Source: Corallococcus interemptor (GTDB lineage: Bacteria; Myxococcota; Myxococcia; Myxococcales; Myxococcaceae). Taken from it: a stretch of 64,000 bases of DNA. The position numbers were made by a program, and so were the translations under genes. Under the pieces are notes generated by a model. That model saw only the letters and a list, made by a program, of their open reading frames with translations, was not told the DNA's origin and did no database searches. The first letter of the stretch is position 1. Each line of letters begins with the position of its first letter. The stretch is taken from the NCBI RefSeq assembly GCF_042231085.1, contig NZ_CP102579.1; one strand, given 5' to 3'. This document shows, in pieces, positions 5,345-55,600 of the stretch.

Positions 5345-5416
5345 GGCGCCATAGCCAAGTGGTAAGGCAAAGGTCTGCAAAACCTTCATTCCCCGGTTCG
5401 AATCCGGGTGGCGCCT
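5345..5416 (+). tRNA. tRNA-Cys (anticodon GCA)
   Basis: GGCGCCA/TGGCGCC form a 7-bp acceptor stem. D-arm GCC-AAGTGGTAA-GGC. Anticodon stem AAGGT/ACCTT with loop CTGCAAA (U33, GCA, A37). T-arm CCCGG-TTCGAAT-CCGGG. Discriminator U73 is typical of tRNA-Cys. No encoded CCA. Confidence 0.85.
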
Positions 5417-5492
5417 CACAGACAAAAGGCCCGATGCGGAAGTCTCCGCATCGGGCCTTCTGCTTTTCCGGGGGGTGTCTTCCCGGGCGGGC

Positions 5493-18391: not shown

Positions 18392-19327
18392 TCAGCCCAG
18401 GGACTTCATGAGGCGCGCCAGGAGCGGCTCCACCAGCTCCTGGCCCCGCAACCGCGAGCGCCAGCGGTGGGGAATCCCGTTCAGGCCGTGGATGAGGCCC
18501 GCGATGCCGCCCGCCACGCAGGCCGTGGTGTCCGTGTCGTGGCCCAGCCGGATGGCGGCTTTGACGACCTCTTCGTAGGTCTTCCCGTTCGCCACGCAGG
18601 CGCGGGCGGAGCGCAGGCAGTCCACGACGTAGCCTCCGCCCGTCCCCGGCGCCGGGTCGTCCGGTCGGATGTGGGCCTCCATTTCCTCCCGCTGCGGGAA
18701 GCCTTCCACGTACAGGTCCCGGAAGGTGGCCACGGCTTCGGCCCACGGATCCGCCGCGCCCTCCAAGATGCGGCGGGCCCAGAGGCAGTACAGCGCGCAG
18801 CACACCTGGGCGCGCACGTGGCCATGTGTCACGCGAGACTGGGCCATGGCATCCGAAACGAGCGCCGCGTCCTTGCCCTGGTGCCACAGGGCCAATGGCA
18901 ACACACGCATCAGTGAGCCATTGCCGTTGTCCAGGGTGCCGTTGGGGCCGGCGAGCATCGCGGGCGTGCCGTCCCGCAACCGGCGCAGGGCGGTACTGGT
19001 CTGGATGCCCACGTCGAACACGTCACCGTCCACGGCGAGGTAGCCCCAGTCCTGCCAGTTCACCAGCCGCCGGCCCAGGTCCTCGCAGTCGAGCCGCTTC
19101 TGATACGTCAGGGAGTCCAGCAGGCACAGCGCGTGGGCACCGTCGTCCGACCACGTGCCCGGTGGGACGCGGTCATGCGCGCGAGTGAAGCCCGGAGGTG
19201 GGTCGTACTCGATGGCCTCCGGGGCCGGTATCGCTTCGGGCCGGTGGAACTCATAGGGCACCCCGAGCGCGTCTCCGACGAGCAGCCCATACAGTCCCCC
19301 CGCGATGCGCTCCTCGCGCCTCACCAT
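18392..19327 (-). CDS. ADP-ribosylglycohydrolase family protein
   Basis: GGLYGLLVGDALGVPYEF...GTWSDDGAHALCL...LGHDTDTTACVAGGIAGLIHG shows DraG/ARH-type metal-binding motifs. Confidence 0.75.
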   Translation of the reverse strand: MVRREERIAGGLYGLLVGDALGVPYEFHRPEAIPAPEAIEYDPPPGFTRAHDRVPPGTWSDDGAHALCLLDSLTYQKRLDCEDLGRRLVNWQDWGYLAVDGDVFDVGIQTSTALRRLRDGTPAMLAGPNGTLDNGNGSLMRVLPLALWHQGKDAALVSDAMAQSRVTHGHVRAQVCCALYCLWARRILEGAADPWAEAVATFRDLYVEGFPQREEMEAHIRPDDPAPGTGGGYVVDCLRSARACVANGKTYEEVVKAAIRLGHDTDTTACVAGGIAGLIHGLNGIPHRWRSRLRGQELVEPLLARLMKSLG

Positions 19328-19483
19328 GTGACAACCTCCCAGGTCCGTGACCCCGACCCATCGTGTACCCAGAACACCATCCTTGTAAAGGCTGATGGGT
19401 CGCGTTGTGTTGATGATTCATGCGAAGCTCTCGCGCCCTTTCTTCCTGGGACGGGCTTCCCAATTCTCACGAGAGGCGCTCCG

Positions 19484-22400
19484 ATGCGTCGACTCACCCT
19501 GCTGGCTGCTCTCTGCCTGTCTGTCCTTGCCTCCTGTTCCCCCGTGGAGCCCGAGGCGCCGGCGTCGCCCGAGACGCTTGGCGAGGCCTCGCGGTCCCAA
19601 TCCCTGACAGTGGTCAAGGATTACTTCCTTGAGCTGACCTGGGACGGAGCCACGAAGTGCCCCACCTGTGATCGCACGACCTATGCGTGCTCGGACAACA
19701 CCGGGAATTGGAACGGGGGCGTCCGGAGCTTCACGGATCCCGTCGCCAAGGGTTGGAGGGTGACTGGCGCGGAGGTGGAGATCATTGGCCGTGGCTACGA
19801 CGGCGGGCTCACGACCGTCCTGCTGAACAGCCAGGTCCTGGGGACCTACGGCATGGCCCCGAATCCCTTCCGCGTGTGCGGTGGCTGCGAGACGCCGGAG
19901 CTCGGCTACAAGGCGCCCGACTCCATGGGGATCCCTGGCTACCGATACGGCGACATCAATACCTTCGCGCTGCGTCCGGAGCGGACCAACTGCATCGCCG
20001 CCGCCCGGATCCGCCTGAGGACGGGGCGGCCCCTGCTCAGGGTCAACCCGACGAGCCTGTCCTTCGGATCGATCGCGGTGGGCGCGTCCGCCTCGCAGAA
20101 GGTGCGGCTGACCAACGAGGGCGTCGTCCCGCTGGTCATCGACGCCATGTCGCTCCCCCTCCCCTTCAAGCTGGCGCCGGTGTCCCTGCCCTTCACGCTC
20201 AAGGAGGGCGCGACCCTGGACGTGACCGTCACGTACGCGCCCACGGCCGACCGCGTTGACTCCGGAATCCTGAGCCTGCTGAGCAACGACCCCGACAACG
20301 GCTCCCTGCCCATCAAGCTCGAGGGCACGGGCGGTGCCCCGAAGCTCGAGCTCGCGCCGACCGCGCTCGACTTCGGCACCGTGCGCGTGGGCGCGAGCAG
20401 CAACCTGCTGCTCCAGGTGAAGAACGTGGGGAGCCTGCCGCTCACGATTCCCGCCGTGCTGACGCAGGCGCCCTTCAGCGTGAGCGGCCTGGCTCCGGGA
20501 GGCAGCGTCGTGCAGCCAGGCACGGTCCTGCCGCTCACGGTGACCTTCAAGGCGACGGCGGGCGCGTTCTCCCTGCCGATGTACATCCAGGCCCAGGGGT
20601 CCGCCACGCCGCTCGCGGAGGTCTCCCTGCGGGGCACGGGCATCGAACCCGCCATCGTCGTGGCGGCGACCGCGATGGACTTCGGTGTGCACACCGCGGG
20701 GGTCGACCCTGTTCGCAAGACGCTGGCGGTCAGCAACACGGGACTGGACGACCTCGTCCTCACCGCCTTCGACGTCGAGGCGCCCTTCACGGTGGAGTCC
20801 GGCCTTCCGCTGACCATCAAGGCCCGGGAACAGGCGAACCTGACGGTGGCCTATGCCCCGGTGGCGGGCCGCGCCGCGAAGGACCTCACCCTGCGGAGCA
20901 ATGATCCGCGCACCCCGGTCGTGAAGGTGGCGCTCACCGGCACGGGCGTGGCGGTCCCCGCGCTCAAGGTCACCGCACCCGATGGTGGTACGGCGCTGGA
21001 CTTCGGCTCGCGCGAGGTCGGCTCCGTGAGCGCGCCCCAGGCCTTGACGCTCAAGAACGAGGGGGCCGGAACGCTGGTGGTGGAGTCCATCCAGGCGCCC
21101 ACGGGCTTCGCGGTCACCCCCGCGGGACGGTTCAGCCTGGCCCCCGGTGCCACGACCCAGGTCCAGGTGACCTTCGAGCCTCCGCATATCGCCCGGTTCG
21201 CACCGGAGCTGCTGCTGAGCGCGGACGGCCCGGGTGGCTCCACCCAGACCGTGCTGCTCAGCGGACAAGGCGTCGAAGGAAAGGTGACCGCCACCCCCTC
21301 GGCGCTGTCCTTCGCGCGGACGGAGGTGGGGAACACCAGCAAGGCGGTGCAGGTGACGATCGTCAATTCGGGGACGGACACGCTCACCATCAGCACCATC
21401 GCGGTGGCGGGGCCGTTCTCGCTGGTGCTCCCGAAGCTGCCGAAGGAGCTCCCGCCGCGCGACGCCTTCACGATGGAGGCGACCTTCGTCCCGGTCGAGG
21501 ACGGCGCCGCGTCCGGCGCGCTCCGCGTGTTCTCGAACGCGCCGTCGTCTCCCACGGTGGTGAAGCTGGACGGTGAGGGGCTCCAGGCCGTCTCCCGGAT
21601 GGCGAGCGACGTGATGGAGTTCGGCGGCCAGCGCGTGGGAGGCCTGAGCGCGCCCCGGGAGCTCACGCTGTTCAACATGGGCAGCGAGTCGCTGAACGTG
21701 ACGGCGGTGAACGTGAGCGGACCGTTCCAGGTGTCAGGGCTCAACGTGGGCACCAGCGTGCCGCCGCTCGGAAACCGCACGTTCCAGGTCAGCTACAAGC
21801 CCACCGAGGCCACCTCGGAGAACGGCGTGCTGGAGGTCCAGAGCAACGCGCCGCGCGCCGCCCAGGTGACGCTGCGGGGCACGGGGACCACGGCCTCGAT
21901 GGAGACGTCCGTGACGGCGCTGACCTTCGGCTCCCAGTTCCTCGGAGGGACCTCGCAGCGCGTCGTGGAGCTGCGCAACACCGGCACGAGCCCCGTCACC
22001 ATCACGGGAGTGGATCCGGTGGACGGGTTCTCCCTGTCGGGGCTCCCGCTGCCCCATGTCGTGGAGCCCCGCACCAGCCACCCCTTCTACGTCGTCTTCG
22101 AGCCACCGCGGCCGGGCGACTACGCGGGGTCGCTCGCGGTGCGGCACGACGCGTCCTCCACGCCGCTGATGGTCGCGGTGCAGGGCACGGGCGTGGCGCA
22201 GGAGCTGACGGTGACGCCCGGCGCCATCGTGTTTGGCAACCAGCGGGTGGACGCCACCAGCCAGCCCCTTTCGTTGGAGCTCGTCAACACGGGCAACGTG
22301 CCCGTCACCGTGCAGGTGACCTCCTCCGATGCCGCCTTCCGTGTGGACATGAGCGCGGCGAGCGGTGCCATCCCGGCCGGGGGCCGCGCCTCCGTCCCGG

Positions 22401-22621
22401 TGACGTTCCACCCGACGCGCACGGGCACGGTGCGCGGCGAGGTCCGCGTGGTGCCGAGCGGAGGCGGACTGGGCCCCACGGTCGTTCCCGTGGAGGGCAT
22501 TGGTGAAGCCGTCACGGTGGAGGGCAGCGGCTGCGCGGTGGGTGGGTCCGGAGGGGTCTGGGTGCTCGCGGCGTGGGTGCTGGCCAGGCGGAGGGCCCGG
22601 CGCGGTCAGCAGACCCGCTAA
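19484..22621 (+). CDS. large surface lipoprotein with tandem choice-of-anchor-D (ASH-like) Ig repeats and MYXO-CTERM
   Basis: ATG 19484 with gagagg RBS. MRRLTLLAALCLSVLASCSP lipoprotein signal. At least eight ~100-aa repeats of the form (L/M)xFGxxxVGxxSxxxxLxLxNxGxxPLxI. The C-terminus GSGCAVGGSGGVWVLAAWVLARRRARRG is a MYXO-CTERM-like sorting signal. Confidence 0.75.
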   Translation: MRRLTLLAALCLSVLASCSPVEPEAPASPETLGEASRSQSLTVVKDYFLELTWDGATKCPTCDRTTYACSDNTGNWNGGVRSFTDPVAKGWRVTGAEVEIIGRGYDGGLTTVLLNSQVLGTYGMAPNPFRVCGGCETPELGYKAPDSMGIPGYRYGDINTFALRPERTNCIAAARIRLRTGRPLLRVNPTSLSFGSIAVGASASQKVRLTNEGVVPLVIDAMSLPLPFKLAPVSLPFTLKEGATLDVTVTYAPTADRVDSGILSLLSNDPDNGSLPIKLEGTGGAPKLELAPTALDFGTVRVGASSNLLLQVKNVGSLPLTIPAVLTQAPFSVSGLAPGGSVVQPGTVLPLTVTFKATAGAFSLPMYIQAQGSATPLAEVSLRGTGIEPAIVVAATAMDFGVHTAGVDPVRKTLAVSNTGLDDLVLTAFDVEAPFTVESGLPLTIKAREQANLTVAYAPVAGRAAKDLTLRSNDPRTPVVKVALTGTGVAVPALKVTAPDGGTALDFGSREVGSVSAPQALTLKNEGAGTLVVESIQAPTGFAVTPAGRFSLAPGATTQVQVTFEPPHIARFAPELLLSADGPGGSTQTVLLSGQGVEGKVTATPSALSFARTEVGNTSKAVQVTIVNSGTDTLTISTIAVAGPFSLVLPKLPKELPPRDAFTMEATFVPVEDGAASGALRVFSNAPSSPTVVKLDGEGLQAVSRMASDVMEFGGQRVGGLSAPRELTLFNMGSESLNVTAVNVSGPFQVSGLNVGTSVPPLGNRTFQVSYKPTEATSENGVLEVQSNAPRAAQVTLRGTGTTASMETSVTALTFGSQFLGGTSQRVVELRNTGTSPVTITGVDPVDGFSLSGLPLPHVVEPRTSHPFYVVFEPPRPGDYAGSLAVRHDASSTPLMVAVQGTGVAQELTVTPGAIVFGNQRVDATSQPLSLELVNTGNVPVTVQVTSSDAAFRVDMSAASGAIPAGGRASVPVTFHPTRTGTVRGEVRVVPSGGGLGPTVVPVEGIGEAVTVEGSGCAVGGSGGVWVLAAWVLARRRARRGQQTR

Positions 22622-24444: not shown

Positions 24445-25536
24445 TCAGAAGGGGTCGAGCCTCGGGCAGGTACCAGCGAAGGGCTTCATCAACATTCGCA
24501 AGCTTTTTTCGGAGACCCTCCACCAAAGGTACTCAGGATTCATCTTCGCCAAGGCAAGAAAGGGCTCCCAAGCATCAAGCAGCTTGGGGTCCAGTTGTAA
24601 TGCACGGCATGTGTCGCCTGCCATCCGACTGATGATCCCCGCGCCGATGTCGGCAACCTGCACTCCTAGCGAACTCTCCGAGGAGACTTCCATCCGCTCC
24701 AGTAACTGAGTCGCGGGCCCTGGCATGGCAAAGGTGTAATGTGCATCGTCGCGCTCATCGCTCTTCGCCAGCATCAAAGAGAAACTCAAGCTCTCGCCAA
24801 ATTGGCGATCAGTATCTGAGACAATGCGCGCCACTTCGCCTCGCCCGCCCAAATCCTGACTGATGGCCCGGAGCATGATCGCAAACTCCGTGACTGCTGG
24901 CGTAGGACGCTCGCTTCGTGGCGGTGCATCGGGACGAACCAAACCGTAGCGGAACACATTTCCCAGACCTGACTCCACCATCCTCCAGGACTCCGTGACG
25001 CGAGAATCAGGGTGGAGCTTGAGCAACCACACCAGCGACTCACCTACTCGCCGTGTAGCCTCCGGGTCATCCGAACGAATTGCCGACTGCAGGTCCATCA
25101 GCAACTGATCTGGGACAGCATCAAAGACTTTGTTCGTCAGCCACCTGCGCCATCCCGGGCGCTCGGACTCAAGCGGCGCGCTTGGATTCAAATCGACATC
25201 CAAGAAGGTCTCGACCAGAAGATGACAGGCCAAGTATCGCTTTTCGGTAATGCCAAAATAGATCCGAGCCCCAGCGGACAATAATGACTGACCGACAGCG
25301 CGAACCACCTTCAGCCCCATTGTCGTCTTGCCTAGCTTTTGAAACTTCATCTCCCTTTGAAGCAGATCTCGATTTTTGTTCCGCAGGTCCGCGACCACAG
25401 CCTCAAGTTCATGCTCCTGCTCTGAACTCAAGAGGATCAAACAAGTCACAGCAAACGGCTGCTTCGTCTCGAACAGGTCCGCGCCCGTGCCTCCACTCTC
25501 GTCAGAGTAGAGAGTGCGCACCAATGAATTTGACAT
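24445..25536 (-). CDS. hypothetical protein with N-terminal YxDESG motif (DUF3800-like?) in low-GC islet
   Basis: 363 aa. The GC content of this gene is conspicuously lower than the flanks (~50-55% versus ~70%). The N-terminus LYSDESGGTG resembles the acidic motif of DUF3800-type proteins. The family assignment is tentative. Confidence 0.5.
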   Translation of the reverse strand: MSNSLVRTLYSDESGGTGADLFETKQPFAVTCLILLSSEQEHELEAVVADLRNKNRDLLQREMKFQKLGKTTMGLKVVRAVGQSLLSAGARIYFGITEKRYLACHLLVETFLDVDLNPSAPLESERPGWRRWLTNKVFDAVPDQLLMDLQSAIRSDDPEATRRVGESLVWLLKLHPDSRVTESWRMVESGLGNVFRYGLVRPDAPPRSERPTPAVTEFAIMLRAISQDLGGRGEVARIVSDTDRQFGESLSFSLMLAKSDERDDAHYTFAMPGPATQLLERMEVSSESSLGVQVADIGAGIISRMAGDTCRALQLDPKLLDAWEPFLALAKMNPEYLWWRVSEKSLRMLMKPFAGTCPRLDPF

Positions 25537-25704
25537 TAAACAATCCTCTTACTGTCGAGCGAGGGCTGTTCAGGACGATAGAGACCTCCGCACACGTAAA
25601 ACAGGCTCACCCGACACTCACTCGCATGACTCTGTGCCTGCGAGACCCAGGGTGATCCGTACGTCTGCGTCTGTGACGAAATCCGCCTCTCTGCCCTCTT
25701 CATG

Positions 25705-26981
25705 CTGAGGCATCCCCTCATCTGAATCAGATAAGCCCGAAGGCTTCGCGGAACACGGCGTGCTCGCGTACCAACTGACCAAACCGCTCCACCAGCGGGA
25801 GTAGACGTTCATCGCTCATGCGTGGCATGGCCATGAAGTAGTAGGCGCCTTGAGTAAAGAGCGAGTGAGTCCGCTTCTTCACGGTATTTACCTTCAGGTG
25901 CTTGTCATAGCCGAGCGCCTCGCCCGCGGCGCCCAGCAGCGTCAGCAGCACCTGTGCCAGGGCGGAAATGAGCAGCAGTCGATCTCTGCGGTCCGGTGTC
26001 TTCACGCGCACCTGCTTGAGGCCCATGCCAGACTTGAGGTCCTTCACGTCTCGGAAGGTCTCCTCGATGGTGAAGCGGCGGGCGTAGGCGTCCATCACTT
26101 CCTGGGCCGTAGCCTCATTGAAGCTGGTGGACAGGCACCAGGACTCCTTCATCCCCTTGCGCTTCACACACACCACCGCTCCGACTTGGGCCCCTGCCGC
26201 GGTGACGCGTGCGCCCCGCAGCACCTTCGCTCGGCCACCCTCCGGCACCCACTGGGCCGCAGGCTTCGTTTCTCCTTCCTCCGAGGTGACGATTACGTCC
26301 GAGCGGAAGCGCACCACGTACTCGAAGTCGAGCTGCTTCAAGAGCGCGTAGAACTTCGCATCCGCGAAGCCCCGGTCCGCCAGCACCGTCACCTGCACGT
26401 GGGAGGGAATCAACTCCCGCAGCCGCTGGAGGACCAGGTCCTCAGCGAGCTGCCGGTTGCCCGCGGAGGCCGATTTCTCCAGCGTCGTCCATAGCAGCGG
26501 CGTCGCGCGTCCATGACGAGTGACGAGGCTTGCCACCAGGGACTCCTGGTCGTCCTTCTCGAAATCCGTCCAGTCCAGTGCGACGACAGCCTCCGTACGC
26601 TCGGCCAGCACGAACGGCACCCAGGCTCCAAAGAGCTTCCAGACCTCAATGCCCCCATTGGAGAGCAGTCGGTCCACCTGCTTCACCGCGTGCTTGGAGG
26701 TGATGTCCTCGCCTCTCGCCCACGCCATGGCCTTGCCGATTGCCGCGATGGACAGGCTCGCCGCCTGCACCGCGCCTGGCGTCGCGTGCGAGAGGGACAG
26801 GATGCGTTTGACGTGCAGGTCGTCCTCGAACACCTCCGTCAAGAACGACCGCACCTGCTCTTCGTCGATGGCCACCTTGCGCGTCATGGTGGCTGCCTCT
26901 TTGCGCTGACTCCAGCGCCTTCGCACGTAGCCGTCGAGCGAGCGTGTGCTGATCAACTCGCTAGATGAGGGGATCCTTCAG
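25705..26981. mobile_element. IS4-family insertion sequence (1277 bp) with imperfect terminal inverted repeats and 9-bp target-site duplication
   Basis: Left end CTGAGGCATCCCCTCATCTGA. Right end (reverse complement) CTGAAGGATCCCCTCATCTAG, giving ~17/19 identity. Flanked by the direct repeat CTCTTCATG at 25696-25704 and 26982-26990. Contains a single DDE transposase ORF. Confidence 0.75.
25727..26887 (-). CDS. IS4-family DDE transposase
   Basis: MTRKVAIDEEQVRSFL... with DDE-region motifs LDWTDF, VLADRGFADAKFY and a C-terminal YxxRxxIEExF-like (YARRFTIEETFRDVK) signature of IS4/IS5 transposases. Confidence 0.8.
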   Translation of the reverse strand: MTRKVAIDEEQVRSFLTEVFEDDLHVKRILSLSHATPGAVQAASLSIAAIGKAMAWARGEDITSKHAVKQVDRLLSNGGIEVWKLFGAWVPFVLAERTEAVVALDWTDFEKDDQESLVASLVTRHGRATPLLWTTLEKSASAGNRQLAEDLVLQRLRELIPSHVQVTVLADRGFADAKFYALLKQLDFEYVVRFRSDVIVTSEEGETKPAAQWVPEGGRAKVLRGARVTAAGAQVGAVVCVKRKGMKESWCLSTSFNEATAQEVMDAYARRFTIEETFRDVKDLKSGMGLKQVRVKTPDRRDRLLLISALAQVLLTLLGAAGEALGYDKHLKVNTVKKRTHSLFTQGAYYFMAMPRMSDERLLPLVERFGQLVREHAVFREAFGLI

Positions 26982-33246: not shown

Positions 33247-33458
33247 AGCACCCCGACGTCACCCGGAGCGGCGGCGTGAATCCCTCCGCGCAGGAGGTGC
33301 CCGGCGGGAATTCCACGCGCGGGCGTCCGGCGAGAACGGCTCCGCGTCCTCCTGGAACGCAGTCGGGGGGGCGGCGCGGAGGAGCCTCAGCGGAACGGGA
33401 GTGGGGCGCATGACTTGCATTGGGGCCACGCATTCCTCCTGCCCCCGAGGCAAGGCCC

Positions 33459-36400
33459 ATGGCTCCTTCCCCTTCGTCCGCGCGCAGCCTCCAGCCCCCA
33501 CACCCTCGCGAGATCTTCGATCCTGGCGCCGCGGCGCCGGGCCGCCTCTATCAAGGCGCCCGCACCTACCGGCTGCGGACGAAGGACGCGGAGCATCCGC
33601 TCCGCATCACCCTCGTCTTCGATGGGGAGGACAAGCGAGCCCCCTCCCAGCTCCTGGTGGGCCACGTGCAGGTCCCCGCCGGGAGCTGGGGCTTCGCGCA
33701 CCGGAGCGGCACGTTGTATTGGCGCTTCCAGGGGGAGAAGGCCCTGCACGCGGGACGGCTCCTGTTCGAGGAGGGCGGCGCCACCGCCACCGGCTTCGTG
33801 AGCGAAGGGGGCGAACGGCTCCAGGTCACCGCGTCGCTCCCGCCCATCACCTATGAGTGCGCGGTCGCGCAGCAGGTGGGGGGCTACGTCACCGGCCAGC
33901 CTCCCGCGCTGCAGCTCCACTGCGACACCACCAGCCCGTCGTGGAGCCACGCGACGTGGGTGCCGTCCGCCTTCCAGTTCACCTACCAGATGCAGCAGCA
34001 GATCATCGTCGGGCAGGAGTTCTGGAACTTCTACGTTTCCTTCCATGACCTCCAGACCGGCGTGAGCTGGACACCGAAGCAGGGCACCTTCGGGGCCCTG
34101 GTCGACGCCAACATGGTCTTCACGCTCTCGGCCGCCTCGGGCATCGCGCCGCCGGCCGACAACCGCCAGGGCCTGGCGGATCCGGCCGCGCGAGCCATCA
34201 CCACCGTCTTCCCCTTCCAGCTCAGCTTCCAGCTCAGCCCCACCGCGCTCTCGCTCGCCGGGAGCATGCTCACCGTGGTGGACGCGCAGAACGGCGTGGT
34301 GCTCGGCGTCCAGGGGCAGGTGCCGAACCCGTCGGTGGCCGGGTACTACGCGCTCGCTGGCGAAGGGGCCACGGCCTCGTTCGCCGTGCACGAGGGGACG
34401 CTCCATGTCGGTGGGGCACCGGTGCAGGCCGCGCGGCTGCGGGGCAACTCGCTCGGCTTCAGCGGGCTCTCCGCCGCGCAGCAGGCGGCGGGCGGGCTGC
34501 CCGCGGCGGGCACGCTCGAGTTCAGCGATGACGGTTCGCGGGTGCGGCTGGCCGACGGCCGGTCCGGCGCGCGCCTGGGCGCGGACTCGCACGTCGCGCG
34601 CCCCGCGCCCACGGCCAGCACCTCGCCGCTCAACCTCCAGACCCTCGCGCTGATGACCCCCTTCGAGCAGCAAGCCGGTCCGCAGGGCCCGACGTGGGTG
34701 GACGCCGTCCAGCAGGCCTCGATGGCGGACTTCAACCAGCTCCTGCTCTACTTCATGGATCCGCAGTTGCGGCAGACCTACTGGAGCCAGGGCCAGCCCG
34801 TCCTCTCTCCGGAGCTCCAGCGGATCGCGACCCTGGCTCCGCCGGGGAGCTCTCCGGCGGAGTGGTACGGCTCGCTGTCGGTCTCCTTCCTGACCGACGT
34901 GCTCTCCACCTGGGAGCAGCCCGGGGCCGACACGCTCAACGCCCTGCGGGCGCAGACCTGGCTCAAGGAGCAGGTCGCGGCGAGCGACGTGTACCGCGTG
35001 CAGATGCCGGCGCTCTACCAGCTCGAATGGACCCGCCGCTTCCCGGCCATCACCGCCTTCCTCGCGGACCAGCGTGAGAACGCGACGAGCTACGCCTCGC
35101 TCATCGCGAGCGACGCGGCGGCCTGGAAGCAGGAGCTGGCCCAGGAGATCGCGGATCCGGACTCGCTCCAGGCGATGCAGTCCCTGGTGGACAACCTGGC
35201 GGCGACCGCGGCGCAGTCCGGGCTCTACTGGGCCTACGCGTACTTCCGCTACGCCACCCAGCCGGCGGCCTTCACCGAGCTGGGGCTCTTCAGCCTGGAT
35301 CCGGACGGCTCGGCCTTCATGCGCCGCGTCCAGTCGGACATGGCGGTGCTCACCAGCCTGGACCCGAGCACCCTCTTCGCCCAGCAGTACGCGTCCGCCG
35401 TCAACACGATGCTCTACGGGAACGTGGTGCCGTCGCTGGCGGACTACGGCGGCGGCCCCGTCGGGATGGACGGCGCGGTCGCGCTGGTGATGCAGGGCAT
35501 CGTCTCCGACGTCGCGGGGAGCACCGACCCGGCGCTCGTGAGCATTGGCGCCGAGGCGCGGGCCCTGGCCTCGCGGAGCGACCTGCCGGCCCTGGTCGCC
35601 CGCGTGCAGGCCGCCGCTTCTGGCTGCGCGACGGGCGCCAGTTGGTCGACGGCGGCCCCAGTGATGCAAGCGGCGGTGGAGGACGCGGTCGGGACGCTGG
35701 GCGCCCAACTGATCTGCCTGTCGCTCGCGGGCCTCACCACCAGCGCCGTCGTCCACGGGGTGGCAGACTTCACGCCCCCCGAGACCACCGCGCGGGTCGC
35801 CGTGTCGCCAGGGCTCATCGTCGTGGCCGTCAACTACACGGTGCAGGTCGCGGCCGGGGTCGTGAAGTGGGGGGTGATCTTCGCCAACGCGCTCGACAGC
35901 TACGCCACCCCCTGGGTCGCGATGCGCGCGCTCTTCACCACCGACATGCTCGACGCGGCCAACGCCGCCGTCGACACCGGGCTCACCAAGTGGCTCATCG
36001 GCAACCGGATCATCCCCGAGTCGGAGATGTTCGGCTCGATGTTCGACGAGGCGGCGGCCCAGGGCGAGACGGTCGTCACCCGCGTCTTCGGGCGGAACCT
36101 CGATGACTTCGTCGCGCTCCGGCTGGGCGCGGTGTTCGCGCTCGCCAGCCTCATCGCCGGCGCCTTCGCCCTGGCCCACAGCGCCACGGTGGACCAGGAG
36201 GTGGTGGCCGCGCTCAGCGTGACCTCTGGCGCGCTCAACCTCATCGCCACCGCTGGCGGCTGGGCCGCCGACGCGTTCGGCGTCACCGAAATCGGAGGGC
36301 TGGCGGTCTCCTCCCTCTTCAGCGTGTTCAGCGTCCTGTCCATCCTCGCCGCCGTCGCGGGCGTGGTGCTGATGATCGTCCAGTGGTGGAAGGCACGCCC

Positions 36401-37271
36401 GTCACCGGTGCAGAAGTTCGCCACCACTTATGCGCAGCCCGCGGGCTTCTACATGCCCCATGGCAGCGCCATCGACGCGTTCACCGGCTACACGCCCCCG
36501 GGAGGGCTCGCGCGGCTCGGCGTCTCGCTCGCGGTCCCGGACACGAAGGGCGCGGTGCTTCGCGCCGGCGACGACGGCACCCTGGGCAGCGGGCCGCTCG
36601 ACTACAGCCAAGCCACGGTGTTCTTCCCCTCGACGGACGGGCAAGGCCGCTCCCAGCTCGTGGCGCTCATGGGCGGCGGGGACTCGGCGCGCGCCTTCGC
36701 GCTCACGGGCTCCAGCGGTGGGGTGTCCTTCCAGCCGCTCCTCCCGTCCACCGACCCGGCGGCCGCGACGCAGCTCTGGACCATCACCCTGGTGGGGAGC
36801 CCCACGTGGGACGGCGACGCGCCCGAGTCAGGCCCCTTCACGCTCACCCTGTGGGGGACGGACCAGGCGCTGGTCTGGACCGGCCACGGCGTCACGCTCG
36901 GCACGTCCGCTTCGCGGTTCACGCTCCAGCAGCAGCCGATGGCACCCCAGGGGCTGTCGATGAGCAACGCGACGCTCTACACGTTCTCCCAGGGCGTGAG
37001 CTTCATCCCTCGCCTGGCGCAGGCGGGGAGCACGCCCCAGACGTGGGCCATCTCCCCGCCGCTGCCGGCGTTCCTGTCGCTCGATGCCGCGACCGGCGTC
37101 ATCACCGAGCCGCTGAGCGCGCCGCAGCCGCTGCCGGTGACCCCGGCGGCGACCTACGTCCTGTCCGTCACGAACCCGCTGCTCACCCGCCCCCTCCAGA
37201 CGACGTTCGCCCTCCAGGTGCTGCCGGCGCCCTCCAGCACCGGGACCGGGCTCGTCGCGCTCGCCGTCTGA
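33459..37271 (+). CDS. giant hypothetical protein A (putative pore-forming/toxin-like; hydrophobic helical core + C-terminal He_PIG/dystroglycan-type Ig motif)
   Basis: ATG 33459 with GAGG RBS. 1270 aa with no signal peptide. Long paralogy with the 39744 gene (YECAVAQQ.../YDCAVALD..., DFNQLLLYFMDPQLRQTYW.../DFNQVMMYYLPSNLRQTYF..., GLYWAYAYFRY). Helix-rich hydrophobic region ~aa 780-1000. C-terminal PPLPAFLSLDAATGVITEP motif. Confidence 0.7.
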   Translation: MAPSPSSARSLQPPHPREIFDPGAAAPGRLYQGARTYRLRTKDAEHPLRITLVFDGEDKRAPSQLLVGHVQVPAGSWGFAHRSGTLYWRFQGEKALHAGRLLFEEGGATATGFVSEGGERLQVTASLPPITYECAVAQQVGGYVTGQPPALQLHCDTTSPSWSHATWVPSAFQFTYQMQQQIIVGQEFWNFYVSFHDLQTGVSWTPKQGTFGALVDANMVFTLSAASGIAPPADNRQGLADPAARAITTVFPFQLSFQLSPTALSLAGSMLTVVDAQNGVVLGVQGQVPNPSVAGYYALAGEGATASFAVHEGTLHVGGAPVQAARLRGNSLGFSGLSAAQQAAGGLPAAGTLEFSDDGSRVRLADGRSGARLGADSHVARPAPTASTSPLNLQTLALMTPFEQQAGPQGPTWVDAVQQASMADFNQLLLYFMDPQLRQTYWSQGQPVLSPELQRIATLAPPGSSPAEWYGSLSVSFLTDVLSTWEQPGADTLNALRAQTWLKEQVAASDVYRVQMPALYQLEWTRRFPAITAFLADQRENATSYASLIASDAAAWKQELAQEIADPDSLQAMQSLVDNLAATAAQSGLYWAYAYFRYATQPAAFTELGLFSLDPDGSAFMRRVQSDMAVLTSLDPSTLFAQQYASAVNTMLYGNVVPSLADYGGGPVGMDGAVALVMQGIVSDVAGSTDPALVSIGAEARALASRSDLPALVARVQAAASGCATGASWSTAAPVMQAAVEDAVGTLGAQLICLSLAGLTTSAVVHGVADFTPPETTARVAVSPGLIVVAVNYTVQVAAGVVKWGVIFANALDSYATPWVAMRALFTTDMLDAANAAVDTGLTKWLIGNRIIPESEMFGSMFDEAAAQGETVVTRVFGRNLDDFVALRLGAVFALASLIAGAFALAHSATVDQEVVAALSVTSGALNLIATAGGWAADAFGVTEIGGLAVSSLFSVFSVLSILAAVAGVVLMIVQWWKARPSPVQKFATTYAQPAGFYMPHGSAIDAFTGYTPPGGLARLGVSLAVPDTKGAVLRAGDDGTLGSGPLDYSQATVFFPSTDGQGRSQLVALMGGGDSARAFALTGSSGGVSFQPLLPSTDPAAATQLWTITLVGSPTWDGDAPESGPFTLTLWGTDQALVWTGHGVTLGTSASRFTLQQQPMAPQGLSMSNATLYTFSQGVSFIPRLAQAGSTPQTWAISPPLPAFLSLDAATGVITEPLSAPQPLPVTPAATYVLSVTNPLLTRPLQTTFALQVLPAPSSTGTGLVALAV

Positions 37272-52060: not shown

Positions 52061-52605
52061 ACAGGGTTTCCGCCCGCACGCAAGGTGCGGCGCGGCACCT
52101 GTGTCATGGCCACGCATGCCTGGTTGCTACGGCTTATTCCAGACTGACAATTGTTACTGGGTTGCTAACGCAAAGTTGCAGGGGCCCCCCTCTTTTCAAC
52201 GAAACAGTGTCCTGGTTAGCATGCGCTCCCACTGAACCCGGCGCGGTGAAGACAACCGCGCCTGGAAGAGTGGGTTGGAGAGCAGCGCTTGCCGGTGACC
52301 GTTGACAGTCGATTCGGATGGGCCGCCCCGGGTTCGGGTGTGGCGCCCGGGCTGTCCGGCCAGTCGCAGCGCTTCGCACCCGTCCTGGTCGCCTCGCGCG
52401 TCCCGCCTTCGCACGCTGAAGTCCCCGCGCACGTCGCCCATGCGACCTGTGGCGTTGGGCAGCGTTTCCTATCGGGCTGTCGTCCATCCACGGTCCGCCA
52501 TCCGTAGCGGGGCGGTCCGCCTCCCCCGGCGGACCTCTCCTCTTGCAGTCGTCGTCTCTCGCAGTCCCCTCGTCCGGCAGTACATACCCCCAAGAAGGAA
52601 GGCGC

Positions 52606-55600
52606 ATGCGTCTCAGGGAAAAGCTGTTGACCAGCCTGCTGCTGGTGCCCATCGCGGGTACCAGCGCGTGGGCCAAGGAGCGGTCGAACTACGACGCGTT
52701 CCTGGAGCAGCGGGACTCCCGCTCTCTCGCCGTGGATTCGAACACGGCGGTGTCCCGCGGGCTTCGCATCGAGCAGTCCGAGCAGCGGCTCGGCGTGCCG
52801 ACGTTCGCGTGGGCCACGCAGGACGGCGCGCAGTCCAAGTCCGTCATCCGCTCCGGCATGACGGTGGAGGGCGCGGCGCGCGCGCACCTGCAGACCGTGG
52901 CGGACAACTACCGCCTGACGCGTGAGGATGTCGCGGGCGCGAACCTGCGCTCGGTGCACAACACCGGCAAGGGCGCCATCGTCGCGACCTTCAACCAGTC
53001 GGTGGGCGGCATCCCCGTCTTCCGCAATGAGATCAAGGTCATCATGGGCCAGGACCTGCGCCTGGTGGCCGTGAGCGGCTACCTGGCCCCGTCCGAGCTG
53101 GCGCTGTCCGCCCGCACCAAGGCGCGCGCCGGCTTCAACCTGGGCGCCGCGGACGCGGTGTCCGGCGCGTTCAAGGACCTGACGGGCTCCGGCACGCAGG
53201 CCACCTCGTTCATCAACGCGGGCACGCGCGGTGACGACACCTTCTTCGAGCTGGCCCCCGGCGCGAAGTCCGCGCTGCCGCAGGACCTGGCCACCCCGGC
53301 CCGCGCCCGGCAGGTGTTCTTCATGCTGGCCGGCAACCTGGAGCCGGCCTGGTACGTGGAAGTGAACGCCGGCCCCAAGGCCGCGCGCTCCAGCCAGTAC
53401 TTCGGCTACGTCATCTCCGCCGCCACCGGCCAGGTGCTCTTCCGCAACGACCTGTCCGCGGACGCCGGCACGGCCTTCACGTACAAGGTCTGGGCGGACA
53501 CGGCGTCCCCGTTCATCCCGGAGGACGGTCCCCAGGGCAACGACGCGACCCCGCACCCCACGGGCACGCGCGACGGCTACCAGGCCCCGCTGAACCGCCC
53601 GGCGAACGACATCACCCTGGCCAACAGCCCCTACAGCAAGAACGACCCCTGGCTGCCGGCCAACGCCACGCAGACCACGGGTAACAACGTGGACGCGTAC
53701 GCGGACCTGAACGCGCCGGACGGCTTCCAGCCCGGCACCAACGACACCCGCGCGGAGACGACGAGCGAAAACACCTTCGCGTACGTCTACGACACGACCA
53801 AGGCCCCGGGCACCAGCACCGAGCAGATCAAGGCCTCGGTGGTGAACCTGTTCTACGTGAACAACTTCCTGCACGACTGGTTCTACGACGCCGGCTTCGA
53901 CGAGGCCGCGGGCAACGCCCAGTCGTTCAACTTCGGCCGTGGCGGCGTGGAGGGCGACCCCCTCCAGGCCCAGGCGCAGGACTACGGCGGCCGCAACAAC
54001 GCGAACATGAGCACGCCGGCGGACGGTGCGTCCCCGCGCATGCAGATGTACGTGTTCGACGGCACGCCCGAGCTGTCCGTCACCGCGCCCGCGGCGCTGG
54101 CCGGTATCTACGAGGCCGGCTCCGCCAGCTACGGCAAGCAGGCGTACGACGTCACGGGTGAGATCAAGGTCCCGGAGACCAACAAGGACGGCTGCGCCGC
54201 GTTCGACCCGGGCTACTTCACCGGGAAGATCGCCCTCATCGACCGCGGGACGTGCAACTTCGTCATCAAGTCGCTCAACGCGCAGAACGCGGGCGCCATC
54301 GCCACGGTCATCGCGAACAACGCCGCCGGCAGCACCATCAGCATGGGCGGCAACGGCACGGATGACGCGAAGATCAACACGCCGTCCCTGATGATCACCC
54401 AGGCCGCGGGCACCGCGTGGAAGGCGGCGGCGGCCACCGAGCCGGTGTCCGTGCACTTCCTGCGCGCGCCGGACCAGGACCGCGACGGTACGCTCGACAA
54501 CGGCATCATCGCGCACGAGTGGGGTCACTACATCAGCAACCGCCTCGTCGGTAACGCCGCGGGCCTGAGCAACAACCAGGGCCGCTCCATGGGCGAGGGC
54601 TGGGGCGACTTCCACGCCATGCTGATGCAGGTGCGTGAGTCCGACCGGACCAAGGCGGGCAACAACAACTGGCAGGGCGTCTACAGCACCGCCGGCTACG
54701 TCACGAGCGGTGGCAAGAACCAGGGCTACTACTACGGCATCCGTCGCCTGCCCTACACGACGGACATGAGCAAGAACGGCTACACGTTCCGCCACATCGC
54801 CAACTTCACGACCCTGCCCAACGAGCTGGCGACGGCGAGCACCGCCAACAACAGCGAGGTCCACAACAGCGGTGAGGTGTGGGCCACGGCGCTGTGGGAG
54901 TGCTACACGAGCCTGCTGAACGCGCACCCGTTCCAGGAGGCGCAGGACCGCATGAAGCGGTACCTCGTCGCCTCCTACAAGGCGACGCCGAACGCGCCGA
55001 CCTTCACGGAAGCGCGTGACGCGGTGCTGGCCGTGGCGCTCGCGAGCGACCCGGCGGACTACCAGCGCTTCGTGGCGGCCTTCGCCAAGCGCGGCCTCGG
55101 CTTCGGCGCCAAGTCGCCGGACCGCGACGCGTTCGACCACATCGGCGTGACGGAGAGCTTCGCCTCGGCCGGCAACCTGGAGGTCACCAGCATCACGCTG
55201 GCGGACAGCGCGGGCGGCTGCGACCAGGACGGCATCCTCGACATCGGTGAGCAGGGTGAGCTGAAGATCACCGTGCGCAACGTGGGCGGCAACGGGCTGA
55301 GCGCCTTCTCCGGCACCGTCAGCAGCACCAGCACCACGGCGACGCTGGAGTTCCCGAACGGCGCGGCGATCAACGTCCCCGCCCTGTCCCGCGGCGCCTC
55401 GGCGACGATCACCGTGCCCGTCAACGTCACCGCGGTCTCCGGCTCGCCCGCGCGCGCCGGCATCAAGGTGGTCTTCGACACCAACGAGATCCCGGCGGCG
55501 GCGAAGACGGTGACGTTCGACCCGCGCGTCAACTACGACCACGTCCCCACCACCAGCAACACGGAGACGTTCGAGTCCGGCCTGCGCGGGTGGACGGTGT

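Follow-up and report, generated by a model that had tools for sequence, protein, structure and literature searches.

In a 64-kb stretch of DNA from Corallococcus interemptor (contig NZ_CP102579.1 of assembly GCF_042231085.1; the whole stretch is referred to below as the window), two giant paralogous proteins, A and B, share a hydrophobic helical core that is real and functionally constrained, and their genes flank a third gene, C, whose product carries a Hint domain. We put at about even the chance that this core works as a membrane-inserting module, more likely an oligomeric pore or conduit than a simple anchor, of an undescribed two-gene system in which A-type proteins have a Hedgehog-type Hint protein as partner. 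An initial annotation of the window had suggested that the core is a membrane-insertion module of the toxin translocation type; the link to toxin translocation domains is one of analogy only.

Genes A, C and B

We used codon-position G+C to delimit the genes, which yielded three close-packed genes in one direction (+ strand) with gaps of 13 nt between A and C and 38 nt between C and B. Gene A (33459..37271) encodes the first giant paralog, of 1270 aa when read from its ATG (the open reading frame opens at a TTG at 33420), with a G+C content at third codon positions (GC3) of 0.94. Gene C (37285..39705) encodes 806 aa that comprise an N-terminal domain, a Hint domain and a C-terminal domain, and gene B (39744..43655) encodes the second giant paralog, of 1303 aa. 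A and B are 42% identical and collinear over their full length. A is 99% identical to a hypothetical protein of Corallococcus coralloides (P0001), and B is 51% identical to P0003, the product of the third gene of an A-C-B order in a metagenome contig. The exact product of gene B is absent from a large protein collection, whereas a near-identical ortholog of A is on record, and a word-indexed search with B in the query alignment returned no B-type relatives; the absence of B from the records may reflect a limit of word-index searching, or B may have gone uncalled in the deposited genome.

A conserved block of hydrophobic helices in the A family

An exhaustive HMMER profile search assigned 536 cluster representatives (50% identity) to the A family at E <= 1e-3, including 180 at E <= 1e-30, with lengths mostly between 1,200 and 1,340 aa. 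Word-indexed searches with A, with A, B and P0002 together, or with a 30-sequence alignment returned only two Corallococcus proteins and unrelated Ig-domain proteins, and the status of orphan gene that they suggested for A was overturned by the exhaustive search. The A family matches no Pfam model apart from He_PIG (in the C-terminal Ig domain), no NCBIfam model (A and B searched) and no PADLOC model, and it has no solved relative and no functional annotation.

We aligned 86 full-length members of the family, which come from several phyla and are 21-47% identical to A, and found five conserved hydrophobic or amphipathic helices, H1 to H5, at fixed positions (residue numbers are from the ATG of A unless stated otherwise; all features of A lie on the + strand). 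Only H5 (aa 950-977, 36306..36389) has clear transmembrane hydrophobicity: across the 86 members it is 28-33 residues long with a family-mean Kyte-Doolittle (KD) hydropathy of 2.17 and 0% charged residues, and its insertion free energy on the Hessa scale (dG) is -2.4 in A, <= 0 in 80% and <= 1.5 in 98% of the members. With a segment of dG <= 0 and no charge as the criterion for an integral alpha-helical membrane protein, H5 qualifies in A, in B and in 80% of the 86 members. H1 (aa 748-770, 35700..35768), H3 (aa 889-908, 36123..36182) and H4 (aa 918-940, 36210..36278) are moderately hydrophobic, with a dG of +2.7 in A and a family median of +2.4 for H1 (family-mean KD 1.1-1.4), and of +1.3 and +3.0 respectively for H3. 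H2 (aa 787-808, 35817..35882) is amphipathic, with a hydrophobic moment of 0.34 and a family median dG of about +8 kcal/mol (Hessa 19-mer), and ends in a conserved K-[RW]-G. On the Eisenberg scales H5 is transmembrane-like (mean hydrophobicity <H> 0.74, hydrophobic moment muH 0.07), and H3 and H4 reach an <H> of about 0.5 (muH about 0.16), compared with -0.08 to 0.27 in control helices from the soluble domain.

The block of aa 873-1012, which comprises a F-G-[RK]-N-L-[DE]-[ED]-F-x-A-x-R motif, H3, H4, H5 and a P-[VI]-x-x-F motif, shows a column entropy of 1.9-2.2 bits, lower than anywhere else (soluble domains 2.5-2.8 bits), and is the most conserved part of the whole family, which makes the description of a conserved core in the initial annotation an apt one. 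The F-G-[RK]-N-L motif (aa 873-888, 36075..36122) lies directly before H3 and is the most conserved motif of the family, with the lowest entropy of any region (1.88 bits) and G878 present in 82 of 86 sequences. Conserved positions of the block include G878, N880, R888, S901, D/N917, E/D/Q927, W935, A965, G968, P983 and F987, with S901, D/N917, E/D/Q927, W935, A965 and G968 counted within the helices. H4 holds on average 0.03 K+R and 1.7 D+E per sequence; its position 927 is E, D or Q in 58/86 sequences (E in 32, D in 13, Q in 13) and W935 is found in 69/86. G968 of H5 is present in 82/86 sequences, and H5 is followed by K/R and by the P-[VI]-x-x-F motif (P983 in 80/86, F987 in 85/86). The loop between H3 and H4 is acidic, with 2.3 D/E and 0.5 K/R per sequence, a pattern that is suggestive of pH-sensing tips though not specific for them, and K/R flank H3 on its N-terminal side as well as directly following H5. 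Small-xxx-small (GxxxG-like) motifs are not enriched in H1-H5 beyond composition.

The four peptides quoted in the initial annotation all lie in protein A within nt 35802-36389, at aa 795-822, 902-922, 931-950 and 960-990 when numbered from the TTG start (nt 35802-35885, 36123-36185, 36210-36269 and 36297-36389), and the collinear region of B that it had placed at roughly 42000-42800 corresponds to B aa 774-1005 (nt ~42063-42758). In B, the counterparts on the + strand are those of H1 (aa 774-802, 42063..42149; dG +0.5, within a 29-residue uncharged run), H3 (aa 917-940, 42492..42563; dG +1.3), H4 (LLVAASGLDLLATAGSWAL..., aa 947-970, 42582..42653; dG +4.4) and H5 (aa 975-1005, 42666..42758; dG -3.0). 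Three details needed adjustment. The hydrophobic part of the flagged range 34700-36420 is confined to nt ~35700-36390, while nt 34700-35700 encode a polar, all-helical soluble domain; the loops between the segments, described as short and polar, include a spacer of ~80 polar or amphipathic residues between the second and third segments; and, although both paralogs have conserved helical segments in collinear order, the first quoted one (VSPGLIVV..., corresponding to H2) is not hydrophobic in B (LVSNAASFAIQATSSILKRGVALEA). The absence of a signal peptide was borne out, with A and B having N-termini that are not signal-peptide-like and 0/86 family members having a signal-like one, and the remaining domains of A and B do look soluble.

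To set the segments against composition, we compared 19-residue KD windows with 2000 shuffles of A or B. The maximum in A lies in H5 and reaches 2.83 against 2.02 +/- 0.24 in the shuffles (p about 0.005), and the H5 counterpart in B reaches 2.74 (p about 0.003). The number of windows with KD >= 1.6 in A is not in excess (4, against a shuffled mean of 3.3; p = 0.43), and uncharged runs of at least 22 residues, of which there are 16 along the whole of A, are not unusual in proteins where charged residues make up 11-12% (A and B). Within A and B, the Hessa dG is negative in the last segment alone (-2.4 and -3.0), with +0.5 to +4.4 in the other segments. The long uncharged hydrophobic segments are thus mostly a compositional signal in the single sequence, save for the last, but the observation exceeds chance because the same five positions stay hydrophobic in the 86 relatives.

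Domain architecture and structure model of A

We modelled A with AlphaFold2 (AF2) using a 58-sequence family alignment, which gave a mean predicted local distance difference test score (pLDDT) of 79 and a predicted template modelling score of 0.65; a 3-sequence alignment gave a pLDDT of 36.7 and was unusable. The model begins with a beta-rich N-terminal domain (aa ~101-390, 33759..34628; strands with pLDDT 75-94), which is replaced by an unrelated N-terminus in P0005, P0012, P0020 and other members that match the profile only from position ~280. A soluble all-alpha domain follows (aa ~395-745, 34641..35693), with helices mostly at pLDDT 85-95 and a family-mean KD below 0.5. After the hydrophobic helices come a beta-trefoil (aa ~1015-1162, 36501..36944; boundaries from the strand pattern) and a He_PIG or cadherin-like Ig domain (aa ~1170-1258, 36966..37232), the latter with Pfam He_PIG matches in 20/30 members (best E = 1.3e-6) and Foldseek matches to cadherin EC domains. 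The trefoil fold is supported, with a single conserved Q-x-W motif (Q1105-L-W1107) where three repeats are expected for the ricin-B type. Comparison by hhalign of the N-terminal beta domain with the C-terminal trefoil and Ig domains gave a probability below 1% and thus no sign of a relationship. This layout of a beta-rich N-terminus, a long helical domain, hydrophobic helices, a lectin-like beta-trefoil and an Ig domain resembles that of an AB toxin.

The soluble domains on either side are predicted mostly above 85-90 pLDDT and the hydrophobic module at 29-68, with residues 769-878 below 50. For H3, H4 and H5 the model gives helices 26, 29 and 31 residues long with pLDDT 45-68 (H3 as residues 781-806 in model numbering, pLDDT 62-68). 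Given these values, against more than 90 in neighbouring domains, H3-H5 do not appear to be confidently buried in a soluble fold; the initial annotation had named placement in a soluble core as the outcome that would speak against it, and the model offers no confident soluble packing for the hydrophobic helices.

The partner protein C and its Hint domain

The Hint domain of C spans aa 320 to ~485 (38242..38739, + strand), with Cys320 at the scissile bond, a block B of T-x-x-H-P and no terminal His-Asn, and a profile of C matches the PI-SceI intein with E = 1.6e-8. Its catalytic motifs are intact: among 18 sequences, C320 is present in all 18, P383, D456 and E483 are invariant, and H382 is found in 16, with Gln in the other two. 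The domain ends in [SA]-[SA]-E-x-P, with the invariant E483 and no Asn. Without a C-terminal His-Asn, thioester activation is limited to the N-terminal bond, as it is in Hedgehog, and C is predicted from these motifs to carry a Hint domain of the Hedgehog or bacterial intein-like (BIL) type that autocleaves at its N-terminal bond only. No transmembrane segment was found in any of the 18 sequences (the lowest 19-mer dG in C is +5.7), and no signal peptide was seen in the six N-termini read. The N- and C-terminal domains of C are conserved and lie beyond any recognised fold, and the region of ~320 residues after the Hint domain can be aligned from Corallococcus to an amoeba.

C shares with Hedgehog/Hog and BIL Hint domains the invariant Cys at the scissile bond after small residues (G/S-S/C|C-F), the T-x-x-H-P block B and the lack of His-Asn, and differs from them in the central position of its Hint domain, in the conserved region that follows and in having no signal peptide. 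The sterol-recognition region of Hedgehog is much shorter than the post-Hint region of C. Members of the bacterial Hint family described by Buerglin in 2008 have a C-terminal Hint domain and, in at least some cases, signal peptides (PMC2362128); C differs in both respects and belongs to a separate family. With PT-HINT polymorphic toxins C has in common a Hint autopeptidase encoded by a mobile, patchily distributed bacterial gene that adjoins the gene of a very large protein. A polymorphic toxin gene is normally followed by an immunity gene, and we found no small conserved or immunity-like gene downstream in the neighbourhoods read. Polymorphic toxins have their Hint domain immediately before a C-terminal toxin domain that varies (PMC3482391), whereas the post-Hint region of C is conserved across phyla. 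This conservation and the absence of a following immunity-like gene set C apart from the PT-HINT architecture.

Relatives of C are named 'Hint domain-containing homing endonuclease' in RefSeq, a label that is probably wrong, since we detected no endonuclease domain. When we searched the PADLOC models, A and B were unmatched and C gave a weak match to a homing-endonuclease Hint model (E = 0.077). A putative Cys-His-Asp enzyme in the N-terminal domain of C (C115/H215/D268) was considered and rejected, as it is not universal: C115 and H215 are jointly replaced (T-D, N-L) in a subfamily formed by the loci L014, L035 and L048. In a metagenome-assembled genome (MAG) of Dinghuibacter sp. (L029, 3379-5481), an A-family gene is followed by two tandem short open reading frames whose matches are confined to the N-terminal domain of C (profile ~8-258), with no Hint domain; by sequence, this N-terminal domain seems able to stand alone.

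Distribution, fusions and mobility of the A-C pair

We searched for further loci with a back-translated FG[RK]NLxEFxAxR pattern, which gave 59 matches, including 22 true family loci as judged by purpose-built hidden Markov models. A C-family gene adjoins the A-family gene in 16/16 loci with at least 1.5 kb of readable downstream DNA, and the start of a C gene was also seen in L030, L042 and L049. The linked pair occurs in Proteobacteria, Myxococcota, Bacteroidota, Cyanobacteria, Actinomycetota and one amoeba: we found it in C. exiguus, another Corallococcus species, Pseudomonas/Aquipseudomonas, Ralstonia syzygii, a Pantoea plasmid, Bermanella and SAR324, and further in Chitinophaga, Cyclobacteriaceae, cyanobacteria (including a Gloeothece plasmid), Actinomycetota (Tessaracoccus and MAGs) and a Polyangiaceae genome. 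The A-C-B order recurs in a metagenome contig, R. syzygii and Corallococcus sp., and the metagenome contig has A-type and B-type copies in matching positions. We found no description of the A-C gene pair in the literature.

In the amoeba Willaertia magna the two genes are adjacent but divergent (L003, contig JBEGDK010000136.1, 5778-13747), encoding P0030 (1248 aa) and an 804-aa Hint protein. Genes with eukaryote-type domains (ORC5_C, TRAM_LAG1_CLN8) lie next to them, a separate 359-aa gene at this locus matches only the N-terminal domain of A, and a second A-family accession from the 90%-identity cluster of P0030 (KAL9645936) is on the same contig. The Willaertia pair points to gene transfer between bacteria and eukaryotes.

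Two fusions join the partners in one protein, namely P0047 (2214 aa, from a JGI metagenome), which consists of A and the whole of C, and P0103 (1625 aa), which consists of A and only the N-terminal domain of C. In both, the C part is attached after the Ig domain of A by a linker with no transmembrane segment.

Decayed copies of the family are found at L021 and L006, a transposase and a recombinase gene adjoin the Pantoea plasmid copy, and a pattern scan of viral contigs gave no match. Compared with C. exiguus (L001), A is 90% identical in nucleotides and 82% in amino acids, so that the proteins have diverged unusually fast relative to the DNA. The ratio of nonsynonymous to synonymous substitution rates (dN/dS) between two Corallococcus species reaches 0.58 in A and 0.81 in C, with its minimum of 0.36 in the H3-H5 block; the high values are weak evidence, because no housekeeping control gene was used and a GC3 of ~94% depresses dS. 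The patchy distribution, decayed copies, mobile-element neighbours and high dN/dS fit, and do not prove, an accessory role in biological conflict.

Topology and proposed mechanism

From these data we infer membrane insertion, topology and oligomerisation of A as follows. The module would belong to a horizontally mobile two-gene unit that combines a multidomain A protein of ~1,270 aa (here together with its paralog B) with a soluble Hint protein C of ~800 aa. H5 would be a true bilayer-spanning helix of 28-33 uncharged residues, with H3, H4, the upstream H1 and the amphipathic H2 packing with it in or on the membrane. The N-terminal beta and helical domains of A, its C-terminal beta-trefoil and Ig domains, and C would all lie on one membrane face: the lack of a signal-like N-terminus in all 86 members, a C protein with neither signal peptide nor transmembrane segment, and fusions whose linker has no transmembrane segment argue for placing both ends of A and C on the same side, which would require an even number of spans (two or four) if insertion is constitutive. 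A topology in which both ends lie inside is compatible with the K/R residues that flank H3 and H5, and the pLDDT across the module is 29-68. The block appears to be more than a passive anchor, since it is the most conserved part of the family and has conserved polar or acidic and small residues within its helices; the motif together with H3, H4 and H5 might form an oligomeric pore or conduit that works with C. Judged from sequence alone, constitutive (co-translational) and triggered insertion have roughly equal odds.

Several points weigh against a membrane-inserting pore or conduit. H2 is not transmembrane-grade, and H1, H3 and H4 are of marginal hydrophobicity, with family-median dG values of +2.4 to +3.0. 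The placement of the helices outside a soluble core is read from low pLDDT values rather than from coordinates or predicted aligned error, and the two fusions are metagenomic gene calls that may contain read-through errors. Ricin-type beta-trefoils and He_PIG Ig domains are mostly extracellular folds, and finding them in the cytoplasm would be unusual; their common location favours a C-terminus on the outside or a released protein, and keeps models of a released toxin and of triggered insertion alive. Pore or conduit activity itself is purely something that we infer.

A bolder form of the proposal, which we hold only tentatively and think rather improbable, is that A and C make up a previously unrecognised two-component membrane-attack or export system that is spread over several bacterial phyla and a heterolobosean amoeba. 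The motif, H3, H4 and H5 would then form a latent pore or conduit, armed, gated or loaded through the thioester chemistry of the Hint partner, possibly by release of the 319-residue N-terminal domain of C or by its covalent transfer onto a lipid or onto A. Fused and split A and C genes might in that case be compared to autotransporters and two-partner secretion.

Relation to toxin translocation domains and rival explanations

The initial annotation had called the arrangement of segments a hallmark of conditionally inserting translocation domains rather than of constitutive membrane proteins. This is too strong, because the same features occur in ordinary membrane proteins that combine large soluble domains with a cytoplasmic N-terminus, and we found no Pfam, PDB-sequence or fold link to the insertion domains of TcdB, diphtheria toxin or colicins. 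An hmmscan search against Pfam-A matched only He_PIG, in A and B at E <= 1 and in 30 members (A, B and 28 others) at E <= 0.1, so that none of the models for toxin membrane insertion was matched (which we take to be TcdA_TcdB_pore, Diphtheria_T, Colicin, Toxin_trans, Endotoxin_N and Bcl-2). A profile search of PDB sequences gave no match better than E = 0.87, and fold searches matched the beta-trefoil and Ig domains and left the helical and hydrophobic part unmatched. Pfam scans of the A family, including the alternative N-termini, revealed no enzymatic cargo domain, and no secretion, lysis or immunity genes were seen in six neighbourhoods read with annotation or domain calls. The family is placed in none of the known translocation-domain families, and the likeness that remains (domain order, acidic H3-H4 loop, no signal peptide) is an analogy.

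That analogy is closest in outline to the delivery region of TcdA/TcdB (~956-1128), which is likewise a cluster of hydrophobic helices of ~170-230 residues in the middle of a very large, signal-less and otherwise soluble-looking protein, followed by a carbohydrate- or receptor-binding C-terminal region. The A family differs in having neither a sequence match nor a fold match to it, in lacking the glucosyltransferase and cysteine-protease domains (He_PIG being its sole Pfam domain), and in being paired with a Hint-domain protein, which to our knowledge is not a feature of TcdA/TcdB. Like the hairpins of diphtheria T, colicin and Bcl-2 domains, H3-loop-H4 is a moderately hydrophobic helix pair with acidic residues in or beside the loop, in proteins with no signal peptide; unlike them, the A module has an 80-residue polar insert and a separate, far more hydrophobic H5, and there is again no Pfam, sequence or fold match. 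Diphtheria T, colicin and Bcl-2 domains are compact bundles of 10 helices or similar, of 170-200 residues, which predictors fold confidently around the buried hairpin. Among ordinary membrane proteins, RsgI anti-sigma factors with CBM42 beta-trefoils also combine a large soluble N-terminal part with the absence of a signal peptide, but their layout needs an odd number of spans with the C-terminus outside, whereas the A-C fusions and the signal-less C argue for termini on the same side, and A has no anti-sigma domain.

We weighed three other explanations for the helices. A and B could be soluble AB-type toxins that are released and whose latent translocation or pore helices enter a target membrane on a trigger such as low pH, with receptor binding by the beta-trefoil and Ig domains, and with the N-terminal region or the Hint partner as the cargo. 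We consider this unlikely, though by no means negligible: domain types that are usually extracellular occur in 86 members with no signal peptide, the acidic H3-H4 loop, the mid-helix E/D and the scarcity of K/R in H4 recall pH-sensing hairpins, low pLDDT is confined to the hydrophobic region, the patchy, transfer-like distribution with decayed copies (L021, L006) and the mobile genes at the Pantoea plasmid copy would suit a toxin, as would the dN/dS values of A and C between the two Corallococcus species (0.58 and 0.81, obtained with no control gene), and Hint domains process many secreted polymorphic toxins (PMC3482391). Set against this are the missing Pfam toxin-insertion matches in the 30 members, the missing PDB sequence and fold matches over the helical or hydrophobic part, the N-termini with no enzymatic domain in any of their forms and the six neighbourhoods with no secretion, lysis or immunity gene. 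Moreover, no single known export route would suit a gene pair that occurs in Gram-negatives, Actinomycetota, cyanobacteria and a eukaryote, and H5 is hydrophobic enough that capture by the signal recognition particle during translation would be expected. A could also be an intracellular suicide or defence effector comparable to gasdermins, latent in the cytosol or at the membrane periphery and inserting into the producer's own membrane from inside, with the Hint protein as trigger, processing partner or thioester donor. A self-contained two-gene unit with no envelope-specific machinery would fit diderm and monoderm bacteria and an amoeba alike, the fusions put A and C, neither of which has an export signal, in one compartment, and the patchy distribution, the mobile-element and CRISPR-adjacent contexts, pseudogenisation and apparently fast protein evolution are in keeping with it. 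We nevertheless regard it as quite unlikely, given that PADLOC defence models are unmatched beyond the weak Hint match, that viral contigs gave no match, that there is no recognisable sensor NTPase or protease (Cys115/His215 of C being replaced in one subfamily) and no evidence of a cleavage site in A, and that the association with defence-gene neighbourhoods is anecdotal.

Finally, the segments could be buried hydrophobic helices of a soluble globular domain that never enter a membrane, as might be expected of a charge-poor protein rich in Ala, Val, Leu and Gly in which uncharged runs occur throughout, windows of KD >= 1.6 are no commoner than in shuffled sequences and H1, H3 and H4 have positive predicted insertion free energies. 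This is very improbable in our view: H5 keeps 28-33 uncharged residues in 86 sequences with dG <= 0 in 80%, and in A goes beyond the shuffled sequences (p about 0.005), AF2 packs every other domain confidently and not these helices, and the flanking charges are transmembrane-like. We prefer, at the even chance given at the outset, a membrane-inserting module that works with the Hint partner.

Other features of the window

G+C is ~70% across the window, which is 99.6% identical in nucleotides to the chromosome of Corallococcus coralloides KYC2213 in reverse orientation. The flanks of A-C-B hold mostly housekeeping or envelope genes, with folD, a Smr-domain gene and genes for adenosine deaminase, dihydroorotate dehydrogenase and ornithine cyclodeaminase upstream of A, and a GT4 glycosyltransferase and a Wzy-like gene downstream of B. 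In a low-G+C island (24445-26956, - strand; 55-65% against ~70%), probably an insertion sequence that carries cargo, lie genes for a DDE transposase (25727-26956) and a DUF3800 protein (24445-25536). The gene at 52543-57753 (+ strand) encodes a myxosortase-dependent M36 metallopeptidase of 1736 aa that bears a MYXO-CTERM sorting signal (NCBIfam NF038112, 2581 bits); this protease is secreted or displayed at the surface and may serve in predation. We also noted a 1162-aa protein (19133-22621, + strand) with repeated HYDIN/ASH/Cep192-like Ig domains, Pfam families that are named after eukaryotic ciliary or centrosomal proteins, and two tRNA genes, tRNA-Ala(CGC) (1003-1091, - strand), called by ARAGORN only and at 89 nt unusually long for a tRNA-Ala, and tRNA-Cys(GCA) (5345-5417, + strand), called by both ARAGORN and Rfam.

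Significance

Membrane-inserting helix clusters in large multidomain proteins are a known kind of feature, and the family described here, with at least 536 clusters at 50% identity, is unannotated. The pairing of A with C suggests a self-contained mechanism in which self-cleavage through a thioester is coupled to a membrane module. If the block does act as a pore or export conduit, it would represent a new toxin, defence or secretion principle, and would offer a prokaryotic setting in which to study Hedgehog-like Hint chemistry.

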